Of a stretch of DNA of 64,000 nt, positions 3,730-64,000 are shown one piece after another. Under the pieces are notes generated by a model that was not told the DNA's origin, did no database searches, and saw only the letters and a program-made list of their open reading frames with translations. The DNA comes from Dictyostelium discoideum (Eukaryota), in the NCBI GenBank assembly GCA_000004695.1, contig CM000154.2, forward strand, positions 2,176,001 to 2,240,000. Reading direction: 5' to 3'. The position numbers and the translations under genes were made by a program. Within the stretch, counting starts at the first letter, position 1. Every line of letters starts with the position of its first letter.

Positions 3730-6568
<2,839 letters not shown>

Positions 6569-17260: not shown

Positions 17261-18980
17261 AATCCAAAAATGAATAATCAACCAAATGAAACCAGATTGC
17301 CATCTCCACCATTATTAAACTCTACTGTTCCAAAAAATGAATTAAATATTAATCATCACCATCAACATAATTATAAAATCAACTCTGCACCTCTAAAAGC
17401 AAGCCAACATGCCAATGAATATGATCATAATGAAGAATCTTTAAATTCCAGTAATAACAATAATAATAATAATTTTAATAATTCTCGTCCAACATTTTCT
17501 TCCTGCTCTGGAAATTCAAATAATACAACAACAACAACCACAACAACAACAACAACCAATCCAATCAATGGTTCAGTTAATTCTAATGTCACTACAACAA
17601 GTATTAATACAATTCATCAAAAATTTATCACTCAATTAAAACAAAGATTAGGAAAAGGTATTGATTATAATAACTATATTAATAAATTAAAAAATATTAA
17701 TAATATTAACAATATTTCTAAATTAATTAATCTATCTTCTCAACCTGATGCAATTGGAAAAAATAATAATTTAATTTCAAACACTGGTCCAGTGGCTGAA
17801 ATGTATGATGATGAAGAATTTGATGAATTTGATGAAGAAGAAGATGATGATATCTCTGCTCAAAAATTAGTTGGAATTCTCTCTAGGGAAAGTAGTAGTA
17901 GTAACCTATCCAGTATTGCTCCATCACCATTATTACAACAACCAAATTGTTTGCCGTCTCCATTCATAAATGGTACTCCACTATTATCAAACCATAGTAA
18001 TAACAACAATAATAATAATAATAACCACCACCATCATCATCACCACCACCACCAAAAAAGATTATCAATTGGATCAATGGATTCAACAAATCACTTAACC
18101 CCACTGCCATTATTACATAAACATACAAACAATAATAATAATATCAATAATAATAATAATCATAATCATAATAATATATTAGGTTCACCCAACCAACTTA
18201 ATAGATCACAAGATTTTACATCTAAAAATAATAATATTAATAATAATAATAATAATAATAATAAAATAATTAATGAAGAAAATTGTAATAAAGGATCACC
18301 AAATCAAAACTCGAGTGAAAATAATAGTGAAGAAGAAAATGAATATCATGGTGGTGAAGAAGGTAATGTTTATTCAGTTTATGATTTAAATTCTCCATAT
18401 TTTAATGAAAGAAAACAAAGAGCTTTATCAAATAATAAATCACAACAACCACCACAACATGTTCCAACTCCATGTACATATAATGATTGCTGTATTTGTG
18501 CCTATGGTCCACCACCATCATTTTTTACATCTGCGCCAACATGGGCTGATATTTGCTATATTGCTTTATACTGTTTAACCTTATCAAGACCCGAAGTTAA
18601 ATATTACCATATAAAGAAAGATATTTGTACTTTTATCGACTGCCATTATGAAACTATTTGTATGAGAAAACGTACTTCAATCTGGAGACAAACTGTAAAT
18701 ATGACATTATCACATCCACAATACTTTGAAATGTTTCAACAAGAAAGTGCTCTTGAAAATGGTAGAAAAGGATACTATGGTCTAAAACAAATTCATGATC
18801 CATATGAACACACCGCTCTCAATAAAAGAAGTAGAAGAAAGAGAAGACATGAACAAAAAATGATTCAAGAAGAATTAAAAAAGAATGGTTTCACAAATTT
18901 ATTATTAAATTCACCTTCTATAGAAAATAATGATCAACACCATAATGGTTATATTCAATCATATAATAATAATAGTAATC

Positions 18981-19058
<78 letters not shown>

Positions 19059-19349
19059 GTAATAATAATAATAATAATAACATTAATAATAATAATATTA
19101 ACAATAACAATAATAATAATATTTTAACTTCACCAATTCAACATCATCCACATTCACACCAACAACAACACCACCAACAACAATTACAACACCAACAACA
19201 CCAACAACAACAATTGCTACACCAACAACATCAACAATTGCTACACCAACAACATCAGCAACAATTACAAATACAGTATCAACAACAACAAACTCATAAT
19301 AACAATTTAAATCAAACTCAACAATTATATTATAACCACCATCATCATC

Positions 19350-30144: not shown

Positions 30145-30765
30145 ATGACATTTAATATTTGTGTATTAATATCAGGTAATGGTACAAATTTACAAGCAAT
30201 AATTGATGCAATTGAAAGTAAATATTTAAATGTTTGTATAAAAGTTGTAATTTCAAATAAAGAAACAGCTTATGGATTAGAGAGAGCAAAGAAAGCATCA
30301 ATTGAAACACGTGTATTCTCACTTCAAAAATATTTAAAACAAGATCCAATCAATAATACACGTTCAACCTATGGATTGGAATTAGCAAAGATCATTAGAG
30401 AATACTCATCGATTGATTTAATAGTTTTAGCCGGTTGGATGATTATATTACCAGCAACATTTTTAAAAGAATTTACAGATAATAAACCAACCATCGATAT
30501 AATTAATCTTCATCCAGCATTACCAGGTCAATATCCTGGTGCACATGCAATCGAACGTGCTTTCAATGATTTCAAAGAAAATAAAATAAAACATTCAGGT
30601 ATAATGATTCATAAAGTTATTGAAGAAGTTGATGCTGGTGAAGTTATCTTAACAAAAGAAATTCCAATACTTCCAACTGATACATTAGAATCTTTAGAAG
30701 AAAGGTTTCATCAACAAGAACATAAATCATTAGTTGAATCAATAAAATTATTATCAACAAAATAA
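30145..30765 (+). CDS. purN: phosphoribosylglycinamide formyltransferase (PurN / GART), 206 aa
   Basis: Intronless ORF. Matching motifs are VLISGNGTNLQAII (PurN N-terminus), LIVLAGWMIIL and INLHPALPG (the NIHPSLLP catalytic loop). Confidence 0.85.
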   Translation: MTFNICVLISGNGTNLQAIIDAIESKYLNVCIKVVISNKETAYGLERAKKASIETRVFSLQKYLKQDPINNTRSTYGLELAKIIREYSSIDLIVLAGWMIILPATFLKEFTDNKPTIDIINLHPALPGQYPGAHAIERAFNDFKENKIKHSGIMIHKVIEEVDAGEVILTKEIPILPTDTLESLEERFHQQEHKSLVESIKLLSTK

Positions 30766-30847
30766 ATAAATGATAATTATTATTATTATTTTTAAAAAAT
30801 ATATATAATTTATTTCTTTTTTTTATTTTTATTTTTAATTTTTAATT

Positions 30848-32565
30848 TTAATTATTATTATTATTATCAATTTCAGTTAATTCAACTGGTAAATAATGAT
30901 TATTTTGTTTTCTAAATTTCTTTTTATAGAAAAGATAAAAAGATATTATTAAAACAGCAAAAGCTGTAATACAAATTACAGTGAATAATGTCCAACCATT
31001 TAAAGTTTTTTCAACTTCATCTTCTTCAATTTCTTCAGTGATTAAATAGATTGCATCGGTTTGTTCAATTTGATAAGATGATGAACTAATTAAACTATTA
31101 TTTAAGAAAATCTTTGTTGAAATGAATTGATTTGAATAACGACCACTTTCACATTTGAGTATATGATATTCACTATGATATTCAATATTTGGATTGAAAT
31201 AAATCTCTAAATCACCATTGAATAAACAATCACCATCAATTAAAAGATGTGGTGAAATTCTACCCAATCTATCGAATCTAATTAAACTTTGTTTTGAATA
31301 AATCTTTAGATCACCTTTAACCACTAATTTATTTAAAAGTAGATCAGAATTAATATTTGAGATTAATAATGTTGCGTTTCCATTCAACAATAAACTATCA
31401 GAAAGGTCCAATGTCGATTGTGCCCCGCCAACCACTGACAAAACACCGCCATTCAATGTTAAATTATAACATTGTATAGTGGAATTATCCAATGTTATCA
31501 TTGCCCCATTGAATAGAGTTAATCTCGCATTCTTATTTCGGTCCATTAATAATGACGAATTCGATTTAAATATAAGATCACCCCGAATATCCATTTTTGA
31601 ATGTTGATCATTAATTCTAACCATTGAATCATTCATAAAGGTAACCGTTGATTCACTATCAATATAAACCAAGGATTTACTTATATCAATGCCTTTTACT
31701 ATTGAATTTTCATTTCTAAACGTTAACGATGTGGAACTATCACTTGAGTTACCATTACTACCTCTATCAGTGATTGATGTAATAATTGAGTTTTTAATTA
31801 TAATTTGATTACCAATATCAGTTTGAATAATTGTATTTTCCAAATTTGATAATGTAATCTTTTCTCTAACTGAATTTTCCAATTGAATTTTACCACCGAT
31901 AATATTTGAAATTTCAACATTTATAAATTCGAAATTATCAACTTCTTTATCACTACCAATTATAATTTGTGAATTTTCTGAATTTAAAAGTTTAATATTC
32001 CCAACTTTTAAATTTTTATTTAAAATAAATGTTGAACTATCATCATCATCACTATCATTCTCTTCATCTTTATTATCAATTGGTGCTTGAAATCTAATTG
32101 ATGATTTTGATTCAATTTTAAAAGCACCATCTTCTGGATCACTATTGAATTTACCATTTACAATAACATTTGAAGATTCTGCTATTGTGAAACCAACACC
32201 TGATATTGATAAATCAACAAATTCAGATTCTTTATGTAATACACAATTACCTTTAATTGATACACTTGAATCATGAGAATATGATTTTATACCATTTGAG
32301 AAATAACAAGTTGGATCATTTATTATACTCATAAATTCGATATCCATAATTGTTGATTTTAATGTTAAACGTGGTTCAAATCTGAATTTTTCATCACTTT
32401 CATTTCCACTACCAATAAGTTGTAATTTTGAATTCTCTACATTAACTGTTATTGCTTCTGTATTTAAATCAATGATTTGAAATTTTATTTCACTATTTAT
32501 AATATTAATTGTACTATTATCAATTTCACATTGTAATTGTTTAATTAAACCAATTTTTGAATTAT

Positions 32566-32597
<32 letters not shown>

Positions 32598-32977
32598 TTA
32601 TAGTTATTTAATTCAATTATTAAATTTGCACCATTAACTTTTAAATTTTGGATATTTAATTGATCTAATGATTGTGTTGAATTATCATTTGAAATTTTAA
32701 AATGAACTGTTACACCATTTAATAAATCTATATTTGGTATATTTATGTTTTTATCTATTACATAATAACTATTTTCACCTGAAAATTTTAATAAATCACA
32801 AGTTTCATTGGTAGGAACTTTATTTGTTGGCCATATTGATTTTTGATTAAAATTGCATGGTTTACTTTTAGAACAATCCATCTCAATTGGTGAACAATAC
32901 ATACATACTACATTATTTATATGAAATGATAATGTTATTAAAATTAACAATAATGAAAATTTTAAAAACTTAATCAT
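30848..32977 (-). CDS. hypothetical type I membrane glycoprotein-like protein (709 aa): signal peptide, Ser/Asn/Ile-rich ectodomain, single C-terminal TM
   Basis: Continuous ORF with an ATG at 32977-32975. The N-terminus is hydrophobic (MIKFLKFSLLLILITLSF). A C-terminal TM helix (WTLFTVICITAFAVLIISFYLFY) is followed by a basic KKKFRK stop-transfer sequence. No recognised domain. Confidence 0.6.
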
Positions 32978-33539
32978 TTTATTTTATTTTATTTTTTTAA
33001 TTATATACATATAATTTTTATAAAAATTTAAATGATATATAGAGAGAAGAGACAGAGAGAAGTTATAATTTTTATTTTTAATTAAAAAAAAAAAAAAAAA
33101 AAAGAAAAAAAATTAATTTTTAAAAACCAACCAAAAAAAAAAAAATTAAATTGAAAAAAAAATAAAAAAAAAAATAAATAAAAATAAAAAATTTAGCTCT
33201 AAATATGTAGTAATTGCGGAGTCAGCAAAACCAAAATTTCTATGAAAATTAAAACCAAGATTGTAATCAAGATTGGTTAAAAAAAATATTAAACAAAACT
33301 TTTGGACAAAAAAAAAAAAATTTATAATCATTTTAATTTTTTTTATTTTTTTATTTTTCCATAATTACCAAAATATCTTAAAATCACTCTTTTTTTATTT
33401 TTTATTTTTTTTTAAAATTTTTTTTTTTATTAATTTTTTTGAATTTTCCTTAATCACTTTTTTTTTTTTGATTTCATTTTTTTTTTTTTTTTTTGTTTTA
33501 TTTTATTTTCAAACGAACGATATAAAAAAAAAAAAAAAG

Positions 33540-34312
33540 ATGAATAATTTTAGAAATTTAATTAATCAAAGTATTAGAAATTATTCAACAACAACAAATG
33601 TTGCAACTAAAACTAAAGTTTATGAATTAAAAACATATAATATTTTAGCAAATAATATTCCATCATTTTTTGAATTATTAGGAGAAAATAAAGGTTCAAA
33701 TAGTTTAGGTACTTGGGTAACTGAAATGGGTAGTTCAAATCAAGTTATTAGTTTAGTTGAACATGAAAGTTTAGATGACAGACAAATGAATGAATGGAAT
33801 ACTAAATTTCAATCAAAAGCAGCTAAATTAATTGAAAAACAAGAATCATTAATTCTTAGAGAATTCCCATGGGCACCATTTCAAAAGATTTCCAATGAAA
33901 AATCAAATGAAAATAAAGTTTGGGAATTAAGAACTTATCAATCCAAACCAGGTAAATTAGGTCAATGGGCCATCGATTTTACAACAGGTTTCGCTGAAAG
34001 AAAGAAAATCTCTGAACCAGTTGGTGTTTTCTATAGTGAATTCGGTCCTTTAAATACAATCGTTCATTTATGGCCATATAAAAGTTTTGAAGATAGATTT
34101 AGAATTAGAGATTTAGCTTTAAAAAATCCAGTTTGGTAAGAATAGAAAAAATAAAAAATAATAAAAAAATAAACTATAAAAGGAAATAATTTTTACTAAT
34201 AATTAAATAATTTTTTATAATAATATTATAAAATAGGGTTGAAACTGTTGCTAAAACAACTGCAAATTTAGATTCAATGGAAAGTAAAACTATTATTCCA
34301 GTAAAATTATAA
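33540..34312 (+). CDS. NIPSNAP-family protein (~223 aa), probably mitochondrial
   Basis: The CDS is join(33540..34135, 34237..34312). The intron runs 34136-34236 (GTAAGA ... AAATAG, phase 2) and splits a Trp codon. The NIPSNAP repeat hallmarks YELKTY...GTW and WELRTYQSKPGKLGQW are present. The spliced C-terminus MESKTIIPVKL matches the NIPSNAP1 tail (MESRIMIPLKISPLQ). The ORF-track ORF 33273..34139 starts upstream in a poly-F artefact; the real ATG is at 33540. Confidence 0.85.
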
Positions 34313-34607
34313 ATTATTTCAAAATAAAATTATTAAATAGTAGAGAGTATTTGTGTTTTTTGCTATCTTAAACTATTTTTATTATTATTTTTTTTTTTAA
34401 CCAAAATTTATTAATAAATTTCCTTTTTTTTATACATATAATATTACATGAATTTATTTTTTATTTCTTTTCTTTTTTTTTTTCCTTTTTTTTTTTTTTT
34501 TTCTCTCTCTTTTCTCCTTTATTGTTTGTTTGCTGCTTCTAACTATAAATTTTATAAAAAAAAAGAAATTAATAAAATATTTTTGAAAAAATAAATGTTT
34601 GAATGAA

Positions 34608-35097
34608 TTAAAAAATTACTTTTTTAGATAAATCATCAACTCTTTGAGTTAATGCGGAAACTTCAGCTTTGAGATCAGCATTTTCTTGTTTTAATGCATC
34701 AACATCGATACCTAAAGAATTTCCAAGATGTTTTTTAATAAATCTGTAAAATAAATAAAAATAAAAATAAAGCTATTAATAATTTATATATATTATGATG
34801 TGATATATTTCTAATATTAAAAAATATTTTAATATTACTCTAATGCATCTGAAGGTTTATCAGATTCTTCGTATAAGCCAACAAGTACTTTAGTTAATGC
34901 ATCTATGACACCACTCTTTTCTAAATAACCTTTGAATTCTTCTTTTTCTGCTGAATTCTTCAAAAATTCAAATAAAAAAAGAAATTAAAATAATGAAAAA
35001 TGAGATTTAAAAAAAGAAAAAAAAAACAAGTAAAATAAAATAAAATAAAAATAATTTGATAAATTTAGACATTAGTAATTTTAAAACTTACTTGCAT
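34608..35097 (-). CDS. c-Myc-binding protein (MYCBP/AMY-1) homologue, 86 aa
   Basis: The CDS is join(34608..34743, 34829..34947, 35092..35097) on the minus strand. There is a 6-nt first coding exon (ATGCAA), followed by two exons of phases 0 and 2. The spliced protein MQNSAEKEEFKGYLEKSGVIDALTKVLVGLYEESDKPSDALEFIKKHLG... matches human MYCBP (REQFRRYLEKSGVLDTLTKVLVALYEEPEKPNSALDFLKHHLG). It was not in the ORF track and I found it by hand. Confidence 0.8.
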
Positions 35098-35556
35098 GAT
35101 TTTAAATAGTCTTTATATATAATTGCGGGTATGAAATTTAAAAAAAAAAAGTTTTTTTTTTTTTTTTTTTTATTTTCAAAAAAAAAAAAAATCTAAAAAA
35201 AATAAAAAAAAAAAAAAATAAAAAAAAAAAAAAAAAAATTAATTAAACAATCCTTTTTTTAAAATTTTTTAAACATTCAAATTTGACTTTTAAAAAAGAA
35301 AAAAAAAAACATCAAAAGACTCCTACATCTAAAAAAATGATTAAAAAAAAAAAACTTTTCTCTAAATATTTTTTTATTCAATAATATTAAAAATAATAAT
35401 AAATAAAAAATAATAATTTTATTAAGAAAAAACAAATAATAGAATAAAGGTAAATAAAATTTTGAAAAATAAAACGAAAAAAAAAAAAAACAAAGAATAA
35501 GAATAATGGAAAAAAAAAAAATAGAAATTTTAAATTTTATTATATACATTTTTTTT

Positions 35557-35592
<36 letters not shown>

Positions 35593-35608
35593 GATAATCT
35601 TTTTTTCC

Positions 35609-38600
35609 TTAATCAGTTTCAACAGTTACATCACCACCAGTTCTCACAGGAGCACGAACTCTAAAAACTTTAACATATTCAGAGGTTTTAATATGATTTA
35701 GTGCTAAAGGTGTAACGAAAATATATTGTTTTGATCTATTTTCTTCAGCTTTTGACATTAAAAGATTGATAGAGATTGAACGATTTACTTCATCCATGAA
35801 AACATCGAATTCATCCATTGCACGGAAAGGACATTCCATATTCTCCCAGAAGGCCAATAATAATGATACAGTTGAGAAAGAACGTTCACCACCAGACAAA
35901 CCTTTGGTATCACCTTTGGCAGTACCATTTTGATTGGAAGGCAAAGCTTTTTGAAGTTCGACATTGATATCCAATTTACCATTTTGATGATCAAAAGTCA
36001 ACGAACCAGTGTAACCTTTCTTTGATAAGAAAATATTAAAGTATTGATCGGATCTACGAGAGATTGAAAGACGGAAACGTTGCCATTTCTTATAACGTTC
36101 ATTCAAATTTCTTTCCAATATGGTTGCCAATTCTTCAATGTTATCACGTTGCTCTGAAATCTCCTTGAGGGAATTATTTGCGTCTTGGAAAAGTTTCAAA
36201 GCTTCAGTTCTTGAACGTTTACCTCTGGACTCTTTCTCTAGTTGTTTTGTATATTGAATGATTTTATTGGTGAGTGTTGTATTGGTTTCATTGGTTGGTA
36301 TTTCAATACGTTCACAAATTTGAGTGGCTTTATCGGTTTTCTCTTTGACAATTTCTAAAATTCTTTGATATTCAGCTTTGAATTGATCTCTTTCTTGAGC
36401 ACTTCTACCTTGTTGTTGAAGCAATGCTTGTTTATTGTTATTGAGTTTTCTAAGACCTTCATTGAATTTTCTTAAATTATTTTCAATATTACCCAACTGA
36501 TTGGAAAGAACATCGATTTGATCATCCAATGCTCTGTTATTTTCAGCGAATGGTCCTTTTTGAGCGGCAACCTCAGTACGTTGAGCTTTTTGAATATTGA
36601 TCTCCTCATCCATTGATTTAATTTCCTCATCGAGTGAAGCTAAACCAATTTCCAACTCTGAATAATCATCAGTTTGTTGAACCAATGTATCTTCGATCGA
36701 TTTAATCTCATTAGTGATTTGTAGGATTTTACGAGAACATTGATTTTGATCTTGATCATTTTGACTGATTTTATGTTCAATGGCTTGAACATCACTACTC
36801 AATTCTTGTTCAATCTTTTTCTGTTGATTTAATGCTGGTAATTTCGATTCCATATCCCTTTGAGTACGTTGAATAGCAGCATCAGAATTTACACGTAACA
36901 TGGTGGCCTCACCAGAATTCTTTGCAGCTTGATAGAATGGATTACCACTCTTGGTTTTGGAATAATTGTTACCTTGTGGATCAAAGAATTGAGATAACCC
37001 ACGTGGACATCTATCAGTGTACAATACAGAATCAATCTCTTTACGATCATTACCCAACCCAATTTGTTCAACTTTTTTAGTATCAATTAAGAAATTAATA
37101 ATGAAATGAGAAGGTGAATCGAGAACACGTAACACTGTAGCTAAAGATGGATCCAATTCATCATGTTCCACAGTTTTATAGACTTCAGTGGTTTCGGGTA
37201 TTTTCGTATAATCAACTTTAATACCAAACTGATGACCCAGCTTTTGAAGGGTAATACCATCTGGAATGGAAAATACCAAAAAGTTTCTAAGTGTAGCCTT
37301 TGAGATTGCCGATTCAATAGCGAATGCCCAACTTTCATTCTTTATCTTTAAACTTAAACCAATGGGTCCAATGGGTAACTTTGAGAAATTACGACGACTT
37401 GCTTCAATTTTATGAAGAAAATCGGTCATACCTTTGCCATAGGCTTGATTTTCACCTTTTTGAGTTGATCTTAAATTGTTTAATTGTACTCTCAACCCTT
37501 CATACTCTCTATTCATCTGTTGGGTGATTGTACGTTGATTTTGATGATCTCTCTTTAAATTCTCTCTATCTCGCATTAGATCCTCTTTTTCTTTAATTAA
37601 TTCCTCCTTTCTTGCCTCCAATTGAAGTTTTTGTTGACCTTTCTTTTTAATCTCATCCAATTTCGATTGATTATTTGCCAATTGAGCATTTCTCTCTTTG
37701 ATTTCATTAATCGATTGAAGTTGAAGATGACGACGTTGTTTTCTTTGTTGTCTCTTTTTATTGTTTGCTTCAATTTGAGTTTGAATCTTTGCCTCTTCTC
37801 TTTCGATTGTCAATATCTCTCTATTGTTTGTCTCTTTCTTTTGTTCCTGTATTTTAATTTGATCTGTAAATTCTTTAATATCCTTTTTAATGTCTTCAAT
37901 TGATTTATTATATGTCTCAATGGTTTCATCAACTTTTCTAATATCATTATCAAAAGATCTCTCCTCTGCTTCTGCAACTTGTTTCTCTTTTCTCTTTGCT
38001 TCTCTCTCTGATTCAACAACAAAACTCCATGCTAATTGATTCTTAAATTCACTAATCTTTCTCTCTAATCCAACCATTTGTTGTAAATCTTTATATTCTT
38101 TATTATATTCTCTAACTTTTTTTTCTAATTCTTGAATTACCTATCATTTATTTTTAAAAAAAAATTAATAATAAAATTAATAATAAATAATAATTTTAAA
38201 AAAATTAAAAAATTAATTTTACTTACAACAACTTTTTGACTTAACATATCTTTAATTTTATCAATATGTTCTCTAATTGTTGTATAATCTTTGGTCATTT
38301 TATCTAATTGTGTTGCCATAAGGAATGATTTATATTTATCTTGTGGACCAGCAGAATTTAAGAATTGTCTACTGGTATCTTGAGTTAAAATTGACATTGG
38401 ATTATCAATTTGAATATTAAATTGTTCTAAAATCAATGATACATCATTAAATTTATCTGAAACCGTTTTACCATTATAATCTTTAACTTTATATCCACTT
38501 GAACCAGTTCTACTAATTCTTCTTTCAATAATAACTGATTTACCATATTTCTCTGGTTTAAATGCTTCTTGACCTTGATTTCTTAATTTAACTGTAATTA

Positions 38601-39007
38601 CTGCAGTACTTTATTTTTTTTTAAAAAAAAAAAAAAAAAAAAAAGTTAAAATAAAAAATAAATAAATAAATAAATAAAATATTAGTTAAATATATAATTT
38701 AAAAATTAAATAATTATATATACTCACTTTGTTTCAGCTTTTACTAAATCAGATAATTTACTACCTCTATTTGTAAAACCAGCTTTTGCACCTAAACAAA
38801 CGATTAATGCAATTAAAACTGCACTTTTACCACTACCATTTTCACCAGCAATAAAATTTACATTTGAACAGAAATCAAGTTTAAAATGACGATGACACAT
38901 GAAATTCTCCAATGTTATACTTTCTATGATACCAGCTTCAGGTTCTGTTACACCACTTTTCAATTGTTGTTCTCTTCTAACCGCCTCTCTTTCATCTTCA
39001 GAGTTAC

Positions 39008-39051
<44 letters not shown>

Positions 39052-39371
39052 CTACTACCACTATCACTTCCAGATGAATCCACATCCTCAACATCTTCAT
39101 CATCATCTTCACTTGAACCACTCTCTTCATCACTTGATTGAGCTTTTAATTTTTTTAATCTACCATTTGAAATTGGTTGTTGTTGTTGTTGTTGTTGGTG
39201 TTGCTTTGTTGGTGTCATTTGTTTTCCATTTTCAACTCTTTGTTGTTTATGTGGTCTATCTTGATCTTGTGTTGAATGAATTAATTCATCATCATCATCT
39301 TCTTCTTCTTCTTCTTCTTCTTCATCCAATTCGTGGGAATTTCCATCATGCCCTAACTTCCTCTTGGACAT
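35609..39371 (-). CDS. smc6: structural maintenance of chromosomes protein 6 (SMC6), ~1185 aa
   Basis: The CDS is join(35609..38140, ~38226..38608, 38728..39371) on the minus strand. The N-terminal head [48 protein letters not shown] matches the SMC6 Walker A region. Exon 2 carries [19 protein letters not shown]...[12 protein letters not shown] (SMC6 LDHFNIQVDNPVSVLTQE...DKYKFFMKATQL). The hinge region is present. The C-terminal [40 protein letters not shown] matches SMC6 [37 protein letters not shown]. The exon-2 boundaries may be off by 1 nt, because my codon walk and the ORF track disagree by compensating single bases in two homopolymer runs. The N-terminal ~150 aa is an acidic/polyQ extension. 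Confidence 0.85.
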
Positions 39372-39598
39372 AATTTATTTTTTTTATTTTTTTTTTTTAT
39401 TCCCAACAAAAATAATTATTTTCGTTATGAAATAGAAATTAAAATAAATAAATAAAAAAATAATTTTTATTTGCGCGCAAAAAATTAAAAAAATAAAAAT
39501 TAAAAAAAAAAAAAAAATTATTATTGAAAAACTTAAAAAATGAAAAAAAAAAAAAAAAAAAAAATATAAAAATAATTTTTAACCCAAAACCACTTAAT

Positions 39599-40069
39599 AT
39601 GGAATCAATGAACAACCAAGAAATTTTAAATGGTACAATTGAATATGTTTCAAGATCAAGTAAATTATTAAAAAAAGTTTCTGATATTACAAAAGAGAAA
39701 ATTAAAGATTATCCATATTTAGATGATTTAACAGAAGAATATATTCAAGTATTTATTTAAATAATAAATATATATATTTTTTATTTTCATTTTTTTATTT
39801 TTTTTTTTATTTTTTTTTTTTTTATTTTTATTTTTTTTTTTTTTTTTTTTTATTTTTGGTGTATTAATATTTATTTACGTCAAGGCTCAACATTTATATG
39901 ATAGAACACCAAAATTATTAAAATTATTGAGCGAAATTAATATAACCGATGCCATCATCTCAAATGAAGTAATTGAAAATATAAATAATATGAAATATGA
40001 GTTGGATCATCTTATAGAATCTACCCAATTTAGAATCGATGATATAGATACCTATTTTAAAAGAGTAAT

Positions 40070-40110
<41 letters not shown>

Positions 40111-40529
40111 AATAAATAAAATAAAAATAATAATAATAAAAAAATTAATAATAATAAATCTAGGTCGAAACTGAATACTTTTTAAAAGATAAAAAAAATG
40201 AATTTTATGTTGAGTTATCTTCATACAATTCACAAATTCAAGATAGTTTAAAGAAGTTAAAATCAATTTATGATGGTGTAACTATTTATATATTATTATT
40301 TTTTTTTTTTTTTTTAATCATATTTATAAAAAAAAAAAATATTGACATATTGTTATTTAAATAGGGTAAACTATTAACAAAAGAGGTTAGTGAAATTAAT
40401 AGGAAAAAATTTAAAAATTCAGATAAAGTCCTAACTAAACATATCAACACAGGAATTGCACTTTTCATCATTTTAACATCACTTTTAGTTTATTTTATTC
40501 AATTTAAACCAAAAATATCACAAGATTAA
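39599..40529 (+). CDS. hypothetical tail-anchored coiled-coil membrane protein (~202 aa), possibly an ER SNARE-like (Sec20/Use1-type) protein
   Basis: The CDS is join(39599..39748, 39885..40064, 40164..40277, 40365..40529), all phase 0, with GT..AG introns of 100-136 nt. A single C-terminal TM (GIALFIILTSLLVYFIQF) follows a predicted coiled coil. Function is inferred only from architecture. Confidence 0.5.
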
Positions 40530-40610
40530 TTTCCAAAGGAAAAAAAAAAAATAATAATAATAGAAAAATATAAATTACTATATACAATTTTATTTATTAT
40601 ATTTAACCAT

Positions 40611-41089
40611 TTAATTTTGTTGTTGTTTTAATTTTAAATTTTCAATTACTTTTAAAGATTCTTCAATATGAGAGGTGGCACTTAATAAAGCTGAATAAGT
40701 ATTAAGTATTTTACTATCGATATCAATGATAAATGTAGTTCTACCAGGTAATAATAAACCTTTTACGCCATAAGATTTTGCATTTTACCATCTTTATCAC
40801 TTAATAAAGTGAATGGTAATTTATATTTCTGTGAAAATTTTGAATGACTTTCAGAATCATCACAACTTATACCTATTACATCAACACCAGCATCTACGAA
40901 TTTTTCATATCTATCCCTAAATTCACATGCTTCTTTGGTGCAAACTGGTGTACCATCTTTACCATAGAAATATAATACAATTGGTTTTTTATTTATAAGA
41001 TCTTTTAATGTTACAATTTTACCATCTTTATCTGCACATGAAAATTCTGGGGCATAATCCCCAACATTTAATTTAATGGATTTTGTCAT
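40611..41089 (-). pseudogene. peroxiredoxin Q / bacterioferritin-comigratory-protein (BCP) family thiol peroxidase with an apparent +1/-1 frameshift near 40765-40775 (pseudogene or assembly error)
   Basis: ORF 40763..41089 encodes MTKSIKLNVGDYAPEF...PIVLYFYGKDGTPVCTKEACEFRD...FTLLSDKDGK, which carries the Prx catalytic TPVC motif, and then stops at ...MQNLMA*. The conserved continuation YGVKGLLLPGRTTFIIDIDSKI...LKVIEN* is read in the -1 frame down to a TAA at 40613-40611 (E. coli BCP FGVWGEKSFMGKTYDGIHRISFLID). No canonical intron can join the two frames, since the only GT..AG pair would be 29 nt long and would delete conserved residues. Confidence 0.7.
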
Positions 41090-41581
41090 TTTCTTAATTT
41101 TTATTTTTATATTTTTTATTTTATTTAAATTAATATTATTTTTTATTTATATATTTATTTATTTGTTTGTTTTATGGTTATTAAAAAAAAAAAAAAAGAT
41201 TTATTTAAATATCATTTTAAAAATAAAAATGAACGAAATCGAAAGTATTCCATTTTTTTAAAGAATAATGGAAATTTTTAATTTCATACCACTTCAAAGA
41301 AATCAGAAAATGAAAAAAAAAATAAAAAAAAATAAAAAAAAATAAAAAAAATAAAAAAAATAAAAAATATAAAAAAAAAAAGAAAAAAATCAAGAGAAAA
41401 TTATTGACCAACATTGTTATAATATATTATTATTATTATTATCATCCTTTTTTTTTTTTTTTTTTTTTTATTATTCCTTTTAATAAAAAAAAAAAAAAAA
41501 AAACTAACAAAATTTTTCTTTATTTTTATTGGGTGGCAAAACCTAACCCAAACTTTTTTTTTTAAAAAAATTTTTATTAAC

Positions 41582-41852
41582 CCAACAAAATATTTGCAGC
41601 TGATATCCACGAATGACCAATCGTTTTTATTTTATTATTAATATCCACGAGCGACCAATCGTTTTTATTTTTTACCAAAAATACGAATAATATTATGATG
41701 AGGTTTAAAATTCATAGCAAAAAAAAAAAAATTCGATAAAGCCTAATGGTTATTTGATAATGATTTCCAAACATAATCATTGTATTGAGATTATTTTAAT
41801 GGGTGCTATATATCTATTTTTTTGATAATTTACTTTTGACCAACCAAATTAC
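41582..41852. repeat. dispersed repeat copy A (~270 bp), unclassified
   Basis: Copy A shares three blocks with copy B at 44480-44750. The first is ccaacaaaatatttgc. The second is a GC-rich core, ccacgaatgaccaatcg / ccaggcgagcaaccaatgg. The third is ~80 bp, taatcattgtatt.a.attatttt.aatggg....atatatctatttttttgataa.....ttt.accaaccaaa. Copy A has an internal 38-bp tandem duplication (41601-41676). Confidence 0.7.
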
Positions 41853-41856
41853 AAAA

Positions 41857-41888
<32 letters not shown>

Positions 41889-44392
41889 AAAAAAAAAATA
41901 ATAATAATAATAATATAAATAAAAAAATATCCTCCCAAACCTAAACAGTTTTGAAAATAAAAAAATTAAAAAAACAAAAAAAATATTAATAAAAATAGTA
42001 TTAATAAATTATTATATTAAATATAATCATAAAAATTAAAAAAAAAAAATAAAAAAAATAAAAAAATAAAAAAAAAGAATTTGAAAAAGACAATCAAAAA
42101 TGTATTTACGTAATTCTTTTTTTATATTATTGTATTTGGGTTTATAAAAAATAAAAATAAAAAACAATAAATAAGAGAAAAAAAAAAGTATTAATAAATT
42201 ATTATGTTAAACTGGAAATTTCAAAAAAAAAAGTATTTTGGGTCAAACTGAAAAAAATCAAAAAAAAAAAAAAAAATATTAAATTTATTTTTTCTCTATT
42301 TCTATTTTTAAAAAAATGGTGAAACTGAAATACTCCCATTAAGCAAGAATTGAAAGAACGAAACTCAATAGATTGGTAAAATACATAAATGGGTGGTCCT
42401 TGTTGCATTTTTGTGAAGACTTCCCCAAAAACAGGGTTTAATGGTTGGAAATTGGAGAGGATTTTATTAAAAAAAAAAAAAAATTATTAAAAAAAAAATG
42501 GAAAAAAAAAAGAATTTGAAAAAAAAAAAAAATTAAAAATGTATTTACCTATTATTCTTTTTTTCTTTTTTTATATCTCTACATATTATTGCATTATTTG
42601 GGTTTTAAAAAAAATAATAAAAATTAGTTTAGGAAAAAAAAAAAAATATATTATTATTTTTTTTTTTTAATAATAATAGTTTTTTTTTTTTTTTTGAGTT
42701 AAATTGTTATTAAAACTTTTATTAAGAAATATGGAGGAAAATTATAAAGATATTATTTATTATATGATTAAAATTTTATTTATTTTTTTAATTGGAAATT
42801 AAAAGAAAATTGAAAAAAATCAGGTAAAACATTATAAGTTGATTTGTTTTGATTTTTTTTTTTTTTTTTTTTAAATATCCCTTTTTTTTATTATTATCAG
42901 AGGAACATAAACAATCACAATTTCAAGATTATTTCTCTAAAAAATAATAATAATAATAATAGTTTTAAAAATTGTGTTAGTACTTTTTTATTCTTTTTTT
43001 TTATTTTTTTAGAGCCACAAAAAATCTAATAATTTTTTTAAAGGAATAATATCTTCTTGGTGGCTATTTTTCAATTAATTAATTTTAAAAAACCTGTGGG
43101 AAAAAAAAAGAAAGAAAAAAAAAAAAAGAATATAAATGTTAGTAGGACTAAAATTATAATCCAGAATAATTAAATCTTCTCATGTTGGAAAAGACAAAAA
43201 AAAAAAAAAAAAAAAAATAGTTTTTTTCTTTTTCTTTTTCTTTTTTTTACTTACCAAAAGGCATTAGAAATACAAATTGGTTGGACTTGAAACTTTTTAT
43301 TTATACTGAGAAAAAATAATAAAAAAAAAAAAAAAAAAAAGAAAATTTAAAAATAAAAAAAATAAAAAAATGATGTAACAATGGCATTATTACATTTACA
43401 AATTACATCATAACGTATTGTTATTTAACATTTAAATATTCTAATAATAAAAAAAAAAAAAAAATAAAAAAAAAAAACTAATATAAATATAAAAAAAAAA
43501 CCCCAGAGAAAGAAAATAGATTGATGAAAAAGAATAATCTTCTGTGTGTGTGTCTTTTTTGTTTTGAAATGATTTTTTGAAATTTCAATATTTTCATAAC
43601 CACCAACAAAAAAAAAAATATTATTTTAAAAATAAAATTTGTAGTGAACCCCACCACACACAAAAATAAACAAAAAACAACTAGATTTAGGACTGAACAA
43701 CACATAATAAATTTAGTATTACAAACCACAGATTTTATTCGAAACTAATTGTTTAAAAAGCAGTTATTTTATAAAAAAAAAAAAAAATTAAAATAATAAT
43801 AGTTATTATTAGTATAATTATTATTTTTATTATTTTCACTTTTGAATTACCTAATTGATTAACCCCTTTTTTTTTTATTTTTATAATAAAAAATTAAAAA
43901 AAATGAAAAAATGATTCCGGAAGTGATTTTTATGAATTACCAGTTTTGAGTGACTATGGGTATATTTAAAATGAAAAGTGGACTGTTTTTTTTTTTTTTT
44001 TTTTTTTAAAAAATTGTCTGAATTCTTTGTTTGAATTAAACTCAAGAAAACCTTTGATAATAAAGTAAAAAGGTGGATAAATTTTTTTTTTTCAATAATC
44101 AAAAAAAAAAAAAAAAAAAGGATACGACTAGTCAAAATTTAACAACATTACAATAAAATTGTTCAACCCATTTACGGGGTTAATTGATTTACGTTATATA
44201 ATTCCAATTTGAATAAAAGTGTTTATCGGTTCAATTATTAATAAAAATAAAAAAAAAAAGGCTTTTTAATAATATTATTAAATGAATTTGTGAATCTTTT
44301 TTTTTTTTTATTATTTTAATTATTAAATTTTAACAATTTCGTGACCACCATTAAAGCACCTGTGCAATAAGCAAATTAAAAAAAAAAATTTC

Positions 44393-44423
<31 letters not shown>

Positions 44424-44479
44424 CAAAAAAAAACAAAATTTAAATATATCAAAATGTGTGCCTATTTTTATAAATATCC

Positions 44480-44750
44480 CCAACAAAATATTTGCTTATT
44501 TTTTTCATTATTTTTTTTTTTCCAGGCGAGCAACCAATGGTTTTTTATAATAATATACTAAAAATAAGAATAACAAATTGAGCTTTTTTTATTTTTTTTT
44601 TTTAATCATTATTTTTTATAGCGAAAAAAGTCGATACCGCTTAACTTTCAAAACAAAATAGTTAAAAAAATAATCATTGTATTCAAATTATTTTTAATGG
44701 GCACGTTATATATCTATTTTTTTGATAAATAACCTTTTACCAACCAAAAT
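44480..44750. repeat. dispersed repeat copy B (same family as 41582-41852, same orientation, ~2.9 kb away)
   Basis: The block-wise similarity is described under copy A. Confidence 0.7.
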
Positions 44751-47593
44751 TATTATTTTTTTTTTTTTTTTTCAAATTCCTTTTTTTTTTTTTTTTTTTT
44801 TTTTTTTCCCAACTGTCATTTGACAAAAATAACTATTTTTACTAAATTACAAAACAAAACAAAAAAAAAAAAAAAGCTTTTTTAAATTTTTTTTTTTTTT
44901 TTTTTATTTTTTTTTATTTTTTTTTTTTTTCCAAAAATTAATTTACCATTACCGCAATGGTACCAGTTGATTTTTATTTTTTTTTTATTCAAAAAAAAAT
45001 ATTAAAATAAAAAAAAAAATATTAAAATAAAAAAAAAAAAAAAAATAAAAAAAAAATGAAAATAAAAAAAAAAAACCACTTTTCCATGGTTTGAATTCAC
45101 ACACTTTCAAATTAATTTAATTGAGAATTCAAAATCTAGATATTTTTTAAATTTAAACGTTTAAAATTTAAACAAAATTATTTTTTATGACACGATGTGC
45201 TTCCTTTTAAGAAATGGTGGATGTTAAAAAATACTGAAATAAGATTCACAGATCTATATTATAGATTAATCCTAAAAACAAATAAATATAATGCGATGAA
45301 GCCTCACCAATATTAAAAAATGGGTTAGTTAGCCTCAATTAGTCGGGCATCCGTTTACCATCAATTATTTAAAACAAAACAAGATCTATCACTCACTTTA
45401 AATATAGGTTTGTAAATGAATTTAAAAGAATAAATTAAAATTTTTATTTTTTTTTTATTTTTATTTTATTTTTTTTTTTTTTTTCTAAAATAACACTATA
45501 AATTAAAAATTTTTTTTCATTATTATTTTTTTTTTTTCTAAAATAACAATCGATTATTTATTATTAAAAAAAAAAAAAAAAAATCAAAAAATAAAATAAA
45601 AAAAATCAAAAAAATAATAATAAAAATAATAATAATAAAAAAATAAAAATAAAATAAGGGATTAGGAAAAAAAAAAAAAAAAAAAAAAAATTTTTAAAAA
45701 AGATCTTTTTTTTTTTTAAAATTCCCCCCGCTCATTATAAATATTGTATATAAAAAACCAAAAAAAAAAAAACCATCAAAAAAATAATAAAAATAATAAT
45801 AATAAAAAAAATATTCTTAATAATTTTCTAAAAAAAAAAAAAAATAAAAACACCAATAATAATAATAATAATACACACACTTTTTTTTTTTTAATAACGA
45901 AAATCAAAAAAAAAAAAAAAAAAATATCTTTTTTTGCCAATACTCGAAAGCTTTTAAAAATAACAAAAGAAGTTTGGTAAGTTTTTTTTTTTTATTTTAA
46001 TTTTTTTTTAATTTAATTTTTTTTTTATTTTTTATTTTATTTTTTTTTTTTTTAATTTTTTTTTTTTTCATTCTTCGCAGCCAAAATAATGGCAAATCTC
46101 CAAAATAATTTGACCGTTTTTTTGGATATTTTTTACGATTTCCCACCTTGGAGACATTATTGTCACAATGTTTTTTTTTTAAAAAATTAGCGAGCAGCCC
46201 AAATGTTTTTTTAAGTGCAAATCATGTGATAACTGTATCCAATGGCGTTGTTTCTTTTTTTTTTTAGATATGTAAAGCAAAGCCACTGCTTATTGTTTTT
46301 TTTTTCTTTTTTTTTTTTTTTTTGATTTTTTTTTTTTTGTGCGCAGCCTCCTCGCCAATAAAAAAATTTTAAATTTAATTTTAATTTTTTAAAATATCCA
46401 TAGTTTATTCTTTTTTCTTTTTTTTTTTTTTTTTTTTTTTTATTTTTATATTTTTTTTTTTTTTTCTTTTTTTTATTTTTTTGATAATCCATAAATTGTT
46501 ATACGCTTTATTTTTTTATTTAAAAAATAATAATAAAAATCTACCTATATAATATATAATATATAATAAAATAAATTAGATTGTGTTTTTTTTTTTTCTT
46601 TTTTAAAAATTTAATAATAATAATTTATTACAAATCAATTAAATATTTTTATTATTAAACATTATAAATAATATAAAATTTTATTAAATTAATTATTTAT
46701 ACACCTTTCGTTTTTTAATTATAACACATATAACTTCATTCTTAAATATATTTTTTTTATTATAATTTTAAAAAAAAAAAAATAAATAATATAAAAACTT
46801 TTTTTTTTTTTTAAACAAAAATAATCACAACTGTTTTTTTAAATTTTATATATATATTATAAAAAATAAAAAACAAAAAAAAAAATTAAAAAAAATAAAA
46901 ACTTCAAAAACCCTTGATCTGCATTCACAAATATCACCCACCCACACATACACACACAAACCCTTACCATAGACATTTTTTATTTCACCTTTTATTTTTT
47001 ACACTTTTTAAAATTTAAAAAAGCCATTTTTTTTATTTTTTTTATTTTTTTTTCTTTTGCAAAACAATTACAATTTCCTATTTATTTGTAATTGACCTTA
47101 ACAGTTTGATATACTGAGAATATCATTTCATAAAAAAACACACACACACCGATCTATAAAAAAAAAAAAAAAAAAAAAAAAACCTACAATTATTTTTTTA
47201 TTTTTTTTCCAAATTTATATAAACTTTTTTTTGTTTTTTTATTTTTGAAACAAAACATCTTCCAGTTTTTTTTTTTTTAATTTTTTTAATTTAATTTTTC
47301 AAATTAATTTAAAAAGACCCAATCAAATTCCATTATTTCCCCACACCTTTCAAATTAATACCATATATAAAATAATTTTTCTTTTTTGTGTAGTTTAACT
47401 TGTTACAATTTGTGCAAACATATATTAATTAAAAAATAATTTTTTTTTTTTTTTTGCATCACCAATCCAAAAATAGTAATAATACCTCATTAGTCGTTAA
47501 TTTAAATTTTTTAATAATATAATATAATATAATATAATTAATTAATAATATAAATAAAAAAAGAAAAATAAAAAAATAAATAAAATAAAAAAA

Positions 47594-47644
47594 ATGGAAC
47601 CAACAACCACCACTACTACAACTCAAAATCAAGAAGTTGATAAT

Positions 47645-47705
<61 letters not shown>

Positions 47706-48689
47706 TCAATACAACAAATAATACAAATACAAATAATAATAATATAAGTAATACTACATCTACATCTACAAATACAAATAATACTACAATCCAACCACAA
47801 GAACAATCATCATCATCATCATCACAACAACAACAAGCACAACCACAACAACAAGCACCAAAATCACATGGTTACCAAAGAATGTTTAAAAGATTATTAT
47901 TAAATAGATCCACTCAACCAAAAACTATTGTTCAAGAAAGAGTAATTGCCTCATATAAAGTATATGGATGGTTAATTAATTATGATCCAGCCTATGAGTC
48001 AACTGCCTTTAGAAGAGAAGTACTTATTGCCATTGATGAAATTTTCGATATTGTTTTGGCCATCTTAGATATGATGAAATGTTCATCAAATCTTTTAATT
48101 CCAATCATCATTTATGCCGATAAATTTGTAAATAGAAGCGGTATTAAACATAATCAATTATTTAATTTATTATTAACAAGGTAAGTTTTTAAAATTTTTT
48201 TTTTTTCAAAAAATCAACCAATTAATTTTAAATCAAATTATTAATTTTTTATTTTTTTATTTTTTATTTTTTTTTTAAAAATTAATTAGCACTGTTGTAT
48301 CATTAAAATTCTGGTCAGAATCAACTCAAGTTAATAATGCAATTATTGCAGAAATTTTTAATTTTTCATTAAAAGATATGAATCTTATGGAAAGAAGATT
48401 CCTTACTGGCGTAGATTACAATTTATTTTTAAACTCAACTCATACTACAAACTTTTTATTACAACTTTACGAAAATCAACATACCTTTTTATCATACTTT
48501 AAACATCCATTCGATAATCCACCACAAATCTTTATGATGCCAATCGAATTAATTCAATATCAACAAACATTAGTACATCAACAACATTATGCTCAACTTC
48601 AAATGGTTCAAGAACAACAACTTGAACAAATTGAACAACAAAAAAAACAATTACAAAAATTTCAACAACAACAACAAATAAATAATAAT

Positions 48690-48728
<39 letters not shown>

Positions 48729-48986
48729 CATCATCATATTATTAATAATAATAATAATAATAATATTAATAATAATAATATTAATAATAACCATCATCAC
48801 CATAATAATAATAATCATCATAATAATTATCATCCTTATCCAGTTAAAAAGCAACTCACAAATCAAAGATACCAACAACAACAAGCTTTAAATCAAAAGC
48901 AACAACAACAATCACAACAACAACAACAACAAGAGCTATCTAATCCAGGTAGTTATCATATCCAAATGGTATCACCAATGTGTTAA
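47594..48986 (+). CDS. PHO80-like cyclin (cyclin U/P-type), ~427 aa, with polyN/Q/H tail
   Basis: The CDS is join(47594..48180, 48290..48986). The intron runs 48181-48289 (GTAAGT ... AATTAG, phase 2). The cyclin box VLIAIDEIFDIVLAILDMMK...IPIIIYADKFVNRSG...ALVSLKFWSESTQVNNAIIAEIFNFSLKDMNLMERRFLTGVDYNLFL matches the PHO80 pattern LMVASKFWDDS....AEVGGISLKELNKLERQFLFLIDFDLNI. Confidence 0.75.
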
Positions 48987-49714
48987 AAAATATATATATA
49001 ATAATAATACACCTATAAGTAACAACTTAAAACATATAGTAATAATAATAATATAATAATAATAATAATTTAAAAAGGATGCAAATTACTATAAACTTTT
49101 TTTTTTCCATTTTCAAATATTTTTTTTTTTCCATAAACCAAAAAATCATTTTTCTCTTCTCCTCTTCATCCCTCTCAATAGTTAATTTATCAAACCGAAT
49201 ATATAATCAGAGTTCAAGTACTTCTTCCTTTTATTAAGTGAAAGTCTTGTTTCAAACTTTTTTTTTCTTCCTTTTTTTTCCCCCCTCCCCTTATCCATTG
49301 CTTTTTTTTTCTCTAGAAATCTTTCAAATATTCTAGTCCAACGCGGCGGTGTGTTTCACTTAATAATAATAATTATATTTCAACACTCTTTTTTTTTATG
49401 GTTCGAATATAAAGTTGGTTGGTTGGCAGACTTTTTAAAAATAGTTTTCAAGAAACTTTTTATTAAAGTCTTCAACACACATCCTCCTCTCGAAATATCT
49501 CCTCTTCGATACAAATATCATTTTTTTTATTCTTCTTTCCCAACATTAATTAATTTTAATTTTGGGATAAATTAAAAAGAATTAATGATATTTAAATTTT
49601 TTAAATATTAAATTAAAAAAAAAAAAAAAAACTTTAACAAAAAAATATAAAATAAAAATAAAAAAAAAATTAGAAAAAAAACAAAAACAATATGTGTTCA
49701 TATTTATTTAACTT

Positions 49715-49956
49715 TTATTTTTTATTTTTAAATAGAAATTGTTCTTGATCATTTTGGATTATTCTTAAAGTATTTAAACCTAATAATCCTTTTAATCTTG
49801 TTTCCAATAATACCATTTCAATTGAAATACTTTCTAAATTATCCTTTGATTCTTTTAAATCTGAATTTAATTGTTCAATATCAGATAAAAATTCCATATA
49901 CTTTATAATATCTTCTTGTTCATTATCCTTCTGGTCAAAATTTTTATTATTATTAC

Positions 49957-49993
<37 letters not shown>

Positions 49994-50253
49994 GAAAAAT
50001 TGAGATTTTTGATTGTTTTCAATGAATTGGTTGGAATTGAGGTTATTGTTGCTATCTAAACTTCTAAATCTTTTAAAACCAATAATATCTTTACTTTGTT
50101 CATAATATTCTTTTTCAACATCTAATTCCATCTCATTCAATTCACTTTCTTTGTGAAATTGTGAATTTTGTTTTTGTACTTGTTTTTGTTGGTGATATTG
50201 GTATTGAGAATATGACTCTGGTACTTTTCTTTTAATTGGTAAATTATTATTAC

Positions 50254-50317
<64 letters not shown>

Positions 50318-50422
50318 TATATTATTATTATTATTAAATTCACCATTTGTTCCATTTGGGTGAATTATTGTTCTTTTAAAATTTTTTAAAATGCTATTAC
50401 TATTATCACTTTTAAATGACAT
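49715..50422 (-). CDS. hypothetical Asn-rich protein (235 aa) with acidic coiled-coil C-terminus
   Basis: Continuous ORF with an ATG at 50422-50420. No domain recognised. Confidence 0.45.
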
Positions 50423-50609
50423 TATTTGATTCCTGTTATGAGAGCTAATAAATAAAAATTGAATAGAGAATTTTTTTTTTTTTTTTTTTTTTTTTTATAT
50501 ATAAATAATTATTTTTTCTAAAATATTAAAACAAATTAAAAAAAACTCACTAAAAAATAGAAATAAAGAGAAAAATATATATATAAATAGAAGTTATTGT
50601 TTTTTTTTT

Positions 50610-50647
<38 letters not shown>

Positions 50648-50659
50648 TCCAATAAATAT

Positions 50660-51191
50660 TTATACATATAAGGAATTATAAGCAATAATCCATGATATCT
50701 AAAAAAAGAAATTTTGAATTTAGTAAAAAAAAAAATTAAAAAATTGAAAATTAAAAATTAAAAAAAAGGATAAAAACTTACAACAAAAATAGTTAAAGAA
50801 GACATAAAACCTTCTCTCATTAATTCCCATTTGAAATCATCTTCTTCAATTTCTAATACTTTAGTATAATATATAGCAACAAAACCGCAAGTGAATATTA
50901 AAAAGGCAATAAAACCTGGAAATCCTATAACCGGGATTGAACCAACTATAATTCCAACCAAAATACTAACAATTTGTCTCAACCAATGTACATTTTGAGC
51001 AATCTCTTTCTATTTTTTTTTATTTTATTTTTTTATTTTTATTTTTAAAAATATTAATATCTGATTGACTTTTTTTTTTTTTTTTTTTTTTCTTCTTTCT
51101 TTTTAATCATTATTACATTTGTAAATTTAAAATCCTTATTAAATGAATTCTTTAAAAGGAGTAATTGAGATCTTTCTTTTGTTTCACTCAT
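50660..51191 (-). CDS. small two-TM membrane protein (113 aa), possibly signal peptidase complex subunit 1 (SPC12)-like
   Basis: The CDS is join(50660..50698, 50782..51009, 51117..51191) on the minus strand. All junctions are phase 0, with GTAATA and GTAAGT donors and ATAG and TTTAG acceptors. The protein is MSETKERSQLLLLKNSFNKDFKFTN|KEIAQNVHWLRQIVSILVGIIVGSIPVIGFPGFIAFLIFTCGFVAIYYTKVLEIEEDDFKWELMREGFMSSLTIFVV|ISWIIAYNSLYV. The architecture and the DFK..Q..W motif resemble SPCS1. This is a weak call. Confidence 0.45.

Positions 51192-60775: not shown

Positions 60776-64000
<3,225 letters not shown>

Follow-up and report, generated by a model that had tools for sequence, protein, structure and literature searches.

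A probable recent pseudogene of a peroxiredoxin Q/BCP paralogue in AX4-type Dictyostelium discoideum

A 479-nt gene for a thiol peroxidase of the peroxiredoxin Q/BCP (PrxQ/BCP) type was found to be interrupted by a single missing T in the codon for Ile103, on the minus strand of a 64,000-nt stretch of contig CM000154.2 (positions 2,176,001 to 2,240,000; hereafter the window). At a probability of about 0.9, we regard it as a real, recent, lineage-specific and non-processed pseudogene of a PrxQ/BCP paralogue, still at its ancestral place on the chromosome, in D. discoideum of the AX4/NC4-type lineage. The window belongs to chromosome 5 of AX4-type D. discoideum, with a GC content of about 20% and long A/T runs; its ORF at 30848-32977 matched AX4 DDB_G0288987 (EAL62948.1) exactly, as did the ORF at 30145-30765 the AX4 purN gene for phosphoribosylglycinamide formyltransferase (EAL62947.1). 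A search of the literature on Dictyostelium peroxiredoxins, PrxQ/BCP, the neighbouring genes and the new species genomes found no paper on this locus.

Gene structure and the site of the lesion

Three-frame translation of the minus strand gave a frame-0 ORF of 108 aa (40763..41089), reading MTKSIKLNVGDYAPEF...TPVCTKEAC...LLSDKDGKMQNLMA; from the ATG at 41089 it ran MTKSIKLNVGDYAPEFSCADKDGK...FYGKDGTPVCTKEAC...LLSDKDGK and then MQNLMA. The remainder of the protein lay in the -1 frame, NAKSYGVKGLLLPGRTTFIIDIDSK...LKLKQQQN*, which ended at the TAA and encodes, past residue 103, the peptides SYGVK, TTFIIDIDSK and ILNTYSALLSATSHIEESLK. After repair of one base, the product was 159 aa long and matched positions 1-121 of the 124 of Pfam AhpC-TSA (E=1.5e-39); a nearly full-length match was obtained only with the two frames joined. 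Because repair extends the Pfam match from 1-95, as seen with the frame-0 ORF alone, to 1-121, the two fragments are two parts of one domain. With an intact orthologue as the query, tblastn located residues 1-103 at 41089..40781 and residues 104-158 in another frame at 40781..40617. A reading made earlier from the sequence alone had described a PrxQ/BCP gene here, with an intact N-terminal part that includes TPVC and stops at MQNLMA*, a C-terminal third that continues in the adjacent frame to a proper stop, and a single-base frameshift in between. Each of these points was borne out, the family by the Pfam matches, the two reading frames by translation, and the frameshift by the tblastn segments abutting at 40781. 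An exact look-up of the 108-aa ORF in the protein collection returned no entry. Coordinates are collected in Table 1.

Table 1. Features of the interrupted PrxQ/BCP gene, in window coordinates
Feature	Position	Strand	Detail
Probable PrxQ/BCP pseudogene, whole, intronless	40611..41089	-	ATG 41089-41087; ancestral stop TAA 40613-40611
Codons 1-102, original frame	40784..41089	-	Pfam AhpC-TSA positions 1-95 of 124, E=2.5e-33
Active-site motif G43-K-D-G-T47-P-V-C50 (FYGKDGTPVC)	40963-40940	-	Codons 43-50
Cp Cys50	40942-40940	-	Invariant, 137/137 homologues
Candidate resolving Cys55	40927-40925	-	Invariant, 137/137 homologues
1-nt deletion site, AAAAT^GC, Ile103 ATT to AT	40781..40782	-	Alignment with orthologues
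Six out-of-frame codons MQNLMA and premature TAA (40765-40763)	40763..40783	-	Three-frame translation
Codons 104-159 and stop, -1 frame only	40611..40781	-	YGVKG, PGR117TTF, C-terminal helix
Arg117, codon AGA	40742-40740	-	In -1 frame, past premature stop; invariant, 137/137
Derived replacements T124I and G126S	40721-40719 and 40715-40713	-	Gly126 in 120/137 homologues
29-nt GT..AG stretch, 'intron' of public model ACTFIT_000841	40760..40788	-	
5' flank, presumed promoter/5'UTR	41090..41484	-	Alignable to orthologous and relocated copies

The position of the lesion was given by an alignment of coding sequences from seven genomes, the window included. Codon 103 was ATT in three genomes, ACTFIR (L004), ACTFIW (L005) and ACTFIZ (L006), as well as in D. 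dimigraforme (L003), and ATA in D. citrinum (L002), while AT alone was left in the window and in a second D. discoideum genome, ACTFIT (L001; GCA_054883475.1, CM142511.1). Thus the third position of the Ile103 codon is missing, and AAAATTGC of the relatives corresponds to AAAATGC in the window, a change of TT to T in a dinucleotide rather than in a long homopolymer. The sequence-only reading had put the transition in a short run around 'aatcttatgg'; this was slightly off, the lesion itself lying about 8 nt upstream. With the T lost and the ATG intact, translation would pass from 102 native residues into six wrong ones and then terminate. No other disabling lesion is present in the window gene, whose start codon and ancestral stop are preserved, as are both frames apart from the break.

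An assembly or sequencing error, the true genome having AAAATTGC and a normal 160-aa gene, had been offered earlier as the alternative to pseudogenisation, in the form of a homopolymer indel. The genome is extremely AT-rich and indel-prone, and error-like stretches with 'stutter' differences from the second assembly do occur elsewhere in the window (42360-46900). However, the gene lies outside that region and the deletion falls in a dinucleotide, and ACTFIT, which aligned with window positions 51112..30592 at 99.59% identity, carries the same deletion: the 479-nt gene was 100% identical between the window and L001 10001-10479. The two sequences come from the same or nearly the same strain, with an SMC exon 100% identical, and differed at 51 places in 20.5 kb. 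Since these differences are mostly in homopolymer lengths, together with error-like, stutter-like clusters, the ACTFIT sequence is a separate assembly and not a copy, and since an independently assembled genome has the identical deletion, error as its source was rejected as very unlikely. Proteins are moreover annotated in AX4 for both of the other PrxQ paralogues and never for this locus.

Within 42360-46900 (for example at 42412-42470, 44734-44780 and 45658-45728), the differences from ACTFIT were clustered, with the preceding base repeated in the window, as in GAGAGAAATATT of ACTFIT versus GGGGGGAATTTT of the window, and were accompanied by several isolated A/G differences. Judged from the two sequences, this region looks like a locally low-quality part of the window assembly rather than real polymorphism.

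The locus in related genomes and independent losses

Intact syntenic orthologues were present in D. discoideum ACTFIR (ACTFIR_001794, 163 aa) and ACTFIW (ACTFIW_007886, 161 aa), which had like neighbours, namely EMC6, a 202-aa gene, an SMC-like gene, NIPSNAP, a DDB_G0288987-like gene and purN. In D. dimigraforme, ACTA71_001116 (160 aa) was likewise intact, with flanks that aligned with the window and with NIPSNAP and the SMC gene common to both. The syntenic orthologues shared 96-97% amino-acid identity with each half of the window gene and differed from it in having ATT as codon 103, one ORF, Thr124 and Gly126 in place of the Ile and Ser of the window, and a longer C-terminal poly-Gln. Flank alignments by blastn extended over window 41381-40579 for D. 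dimigraforme (L003 9700-10512) and over window 41484-40617 for D. citrinum (L002 9641-10474), and the 5' flank of the window gene aligned also with ACTFIR. In D. citrinum, the syntenic site was empty (L010), and an intact copy with an upstream region of about 360 bp was located at a different locus (L002). The suggestion of recent pseudogenisation, made from the sequence alone, is therefore supported by the deletion in an independent assembly, by the intact syntenic orthologues and by the frameshift being the only disabling lesion.

Of the substitutions assigned by parsimony to the AX4-type branch, three precede the lesion and four follow it. Those upstream are synonymous at codons 10 and 84, with an ambiguous replacement at codon 19; those downstream are synonymous at codons 106 and 108, with the replacements T124I and G126S. 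On the aligned sequences, this pattern, with counts too small for a test, would fit a recent inactivation and the beginnings of some decay in the downstream part.

The same paralogue had been inactivated in two further lineages. The syntenic copy of ACTFIZ (D. cf. discoideum; L006 14886-15380), in which codon 103 is still ATT, was non-functional, having lost the ATG, with a 1-nt deletion in an A6 run at codons 33-35, a 16-nt insertion that contains the reverse complement of the adjacent GGTAAAGATGGT, and the replacement Gly116Cys (PGR to PCR). In ACTFIY (D. cf. discoideum; L009 about 8700-8780), a deletion of about 0.78 kb had left the last 70 nt or so of the coding sequence. The tree of the adjacent 2,469-nt SMC exon was (((((window, ACTFIT), (ACTFIW, ACTFIR)), ACTFIY), ACTFIZ), D. 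citrinum), D. dimigraforme; because it nests an intact lineage among the AX4-type, ACTFIY and ACTFIZ inactivations, the three are independent. Between the AX4-type sequence and ACTFIR/ACTFIW, the SMC exon differed by 1.7%; over 19 kb, substitutions amounted to about 3% and indels were numerous, a divergence that suggests deep lineages or cryptic species within what is called 'D. discoideum'. Scanned against metagenomes, the sequence around the lesion gave 0 matches in either allelic form.

Some features of the surrounding DNA may be recorded here. The 6.5 kb or so upstream of the gene (41100-47590) is an unusually long gene-free stretch for a gene-dense genome; it aligned at about 75% to D. 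dimigraforme and contained no long ORF, tRNA or Rfam match, nor was a gene called there in the related annotated loci. Scans of the whole window for tRNAs and Rfam families gave no matches. Long trinucleotide-repeat tracts at 978-1134, 5729-5947, 18950-19120 and 63562-63757 cross-matched many places in the related loci and are typical Dictyostelium microsatellites of the poly-Asn/Gln type.

The 29-nt GT..AG stretch, public gene models and recoding

The best D. discoideum match to the window product was ACTFIT_000841 (149 aa, P0003), which equals that product minus KNAKSYGVKG. Since the ACTFIT_000841 gene spans 479 nt, as in the window, the 29-nt GT..AG stretch had been taken as an intron by the gene caller. 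This stretch is the sole GT..AG pair that joins the two frames, and its removal would take out K102-G111 with the conserved YGV block, as had been noticed from the sequence alone, where it was held to be an implausible intron; that view was confirmed. Were it a genuine micro-intron, its splicing would produce the 149-aa protein of ACTFIT_000841, and the boundaries, the restored frame and the use of this model in a public automatic annotation all agree with such a reading. Yet the median intron of D. discoideum measures 104 bp and the mean length is 133 bp (PMC4683709), far above 29 nt, and in every orthologue the stretch forms an uninterrupted part of the coding sequence. Splicing would also delete Y107, G108 (present in 130 of the 137 homologues) and V109 (in 122 of them) together with helix 102-106, and the real intron of a paralogue in L007 measures about 104 nt. 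A spliceosomal intron was thus rejected as extremely improbable, and the 'intron' of ACTFIT_000841 was judged an annotation artefact; if true, it would be by far the shortest Dictyostelium intron.

ACTFIT_000841 and ACTFIZ_003377 are both artefacts of gene callers bridging frameshifts, the public model of the latter (L006 10001-15380) spanning 5.4 kb across the lesions. A gene model with an aberrant N-terminus was seen also for ACTFIY_002368 (P0127, 130 aa). The intron of the sister paralogue, of the ACTFIZ_003930 type (L007 10001-10569), follows directly after the TPVCTK codons; unlike this paralogue, the window gene and its orthologues are intronless.

Restoration of the full-length enzyme by recoding, either programmed -1 ribosomal frameshifting or transcriptional slippage, would require a shift of -1, which is the shift present here, and the site adjoins an A4 run (GGT AAA ATG). 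Against this, a scan of codons 1-110 in the zero frame revealed no X XXY YYZ slippery heptamer, and an A4 run is too short for known transcriptional slippage. Since the protein is read from a single frame in all close relatives, there is no conserved recoding signal, and the sister lineages ACTFIY and ACTFIZ have destroyed the gene outright. A programmed -1 frameshift gene was rejected on these grounds, and recoding in general is hardly to be credited, no more so than splicing.

Predicted protein product and the remaining paralogues

Among the homologues of the repaired protein, dictyostelid PrxQ-type proteins ranked highest and bacterial peroxiredoxin Q/BCP came next, and the best solved structure for the repaired product was Sulfolobus solfataricus Bcp1 (PDB 3DRN; E=7.5e-39, residues 8-154). 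Like PrxQ/BCP enzymes, the repaired product has Thr47, the peroxidatic-position Cp Cys50, the C50-x4-C55 arrangement and the arginine of PGR117; it departs from them in the break of the window frame after codon 102, because of which the window gene cannot make the enzyme, and in a Gly that replaces the canonical Pro throughout its clade. The spacing of the candidate resolving Cys, a common trait of PrxQ/BCP enzymes shared by many of them, is retained as C50-TKEA-C55, the second Cys lying five residues after Cp, and the PxxxT/SxxC motif has Thr47 and Cys50, with Gly43 in place of Pro. This Pro was found in 125 of the 137 homologues and Gly in 10, all of them in the Dictyostelium clade of the window gene and including the intact orthologues. 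Clade proteins with Gly for Pro were P0001, P0002, P0004 and P0121-P0126.

In the alignment of the 137 homologues, Cys50, Cys55 and Arg117 were invariant, and Arg117 is encoded downstream of the shift, in a frame other than that of Cp. The AlphaFold model of the D. citrinum orthologue, 93% identical (pLDDT 85, pTM 0.82), showed that the part beyond the break contains helix 102-106, strands 118-122 and 127-133, and helix 138-164. The 108-aa product keeps Cys50 and Cys55 and lacks Arg117, helix 102-106, both strands and the C-terminal helix; as modelled, roughly one third of the thioredoxin fold would be absent from it, along with a residue essential for catalysis. Because Arg117, the two core beta-strands and the C-terminal helix are missing, the product is predicted to be inactive, and should neither fold nor catalyse peroxide reduction.

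That the 108-aa product might nevertheless serve as a functional shortened thiol protein, a neofunctionalised fragment, would accord with the intact ATG, upstream region, Cp Cys50 and Cys55 of the ORF and with the lack of any clear replacement in the part before the lesion. A young pseudogene, however, would be expected to show no decay there, related lineages have lost the N-terminal part as well, and a fragment without the invariant Arg117 and the two central beta-strands of the thioredoxin fold is a poor candidate, so that this explanation is about as unlikely as an assembly error. Even taken together, a micro-intron, -1 frameshifting and a functional fragment are improbable. There is likewise only a slim chance, marginally better than that of an assembly error, that the gene is not dead, a working enzyme being made through splicing of the 29-nt GT..AG stretch or recoding at AAAAT^GC, or, in a milder form, that the repeated loss of the paralogue with Gly for Pro was selected and not due to drift.

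The recent pseudogene is thus the preferred reading, and the loss can be set against the other PrxQ genes of AX4. The neighbour-joining tree contained three group-4 dictyostelid PrxQ clades, those of the paralogues forming sister clades to that of the window gene. AX4 has intact members in two of the three, EAL67458.1 (152 aa) and EAL69628.1 (198 aa, with an N-terminal extension), at other loci. They were 62-71% identical to the repaired product, as judged via the cluster representatives P0007 (71%) and P0010 (63%), and retain the canonical YPKD...C motif, unlike the clade of the window gene. Among the annotated proteins of AX4-type D. discoideum, that clade had no intact member, and an AX4 protein for this locus was not found. 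With two further PrxQ paralogues left in AX4, the gene loss is presumably tolerated, and these paralogues probably supply PrxQ activity. Members of the D. discoideum complex would appear able to do without the subfamily with Gly for Pro, and at least two further, independent events have destroyed this locus among them.

The result chiefly serves annotation, in which this locus of AX4-type D. discoideum should be entered as a pseudogene. The standard laboratory lineage is without one of the three PrxQ-type peroxiredoxin subfamilies of its closest relatives, which is of relevance where genes for oxidative stress are compared between strains. The phenomenon is an ordinary one, of low general interest, and opens no long-standing question; it offers a small, clean case of a divergent paralogue lost repeatedly and independently.
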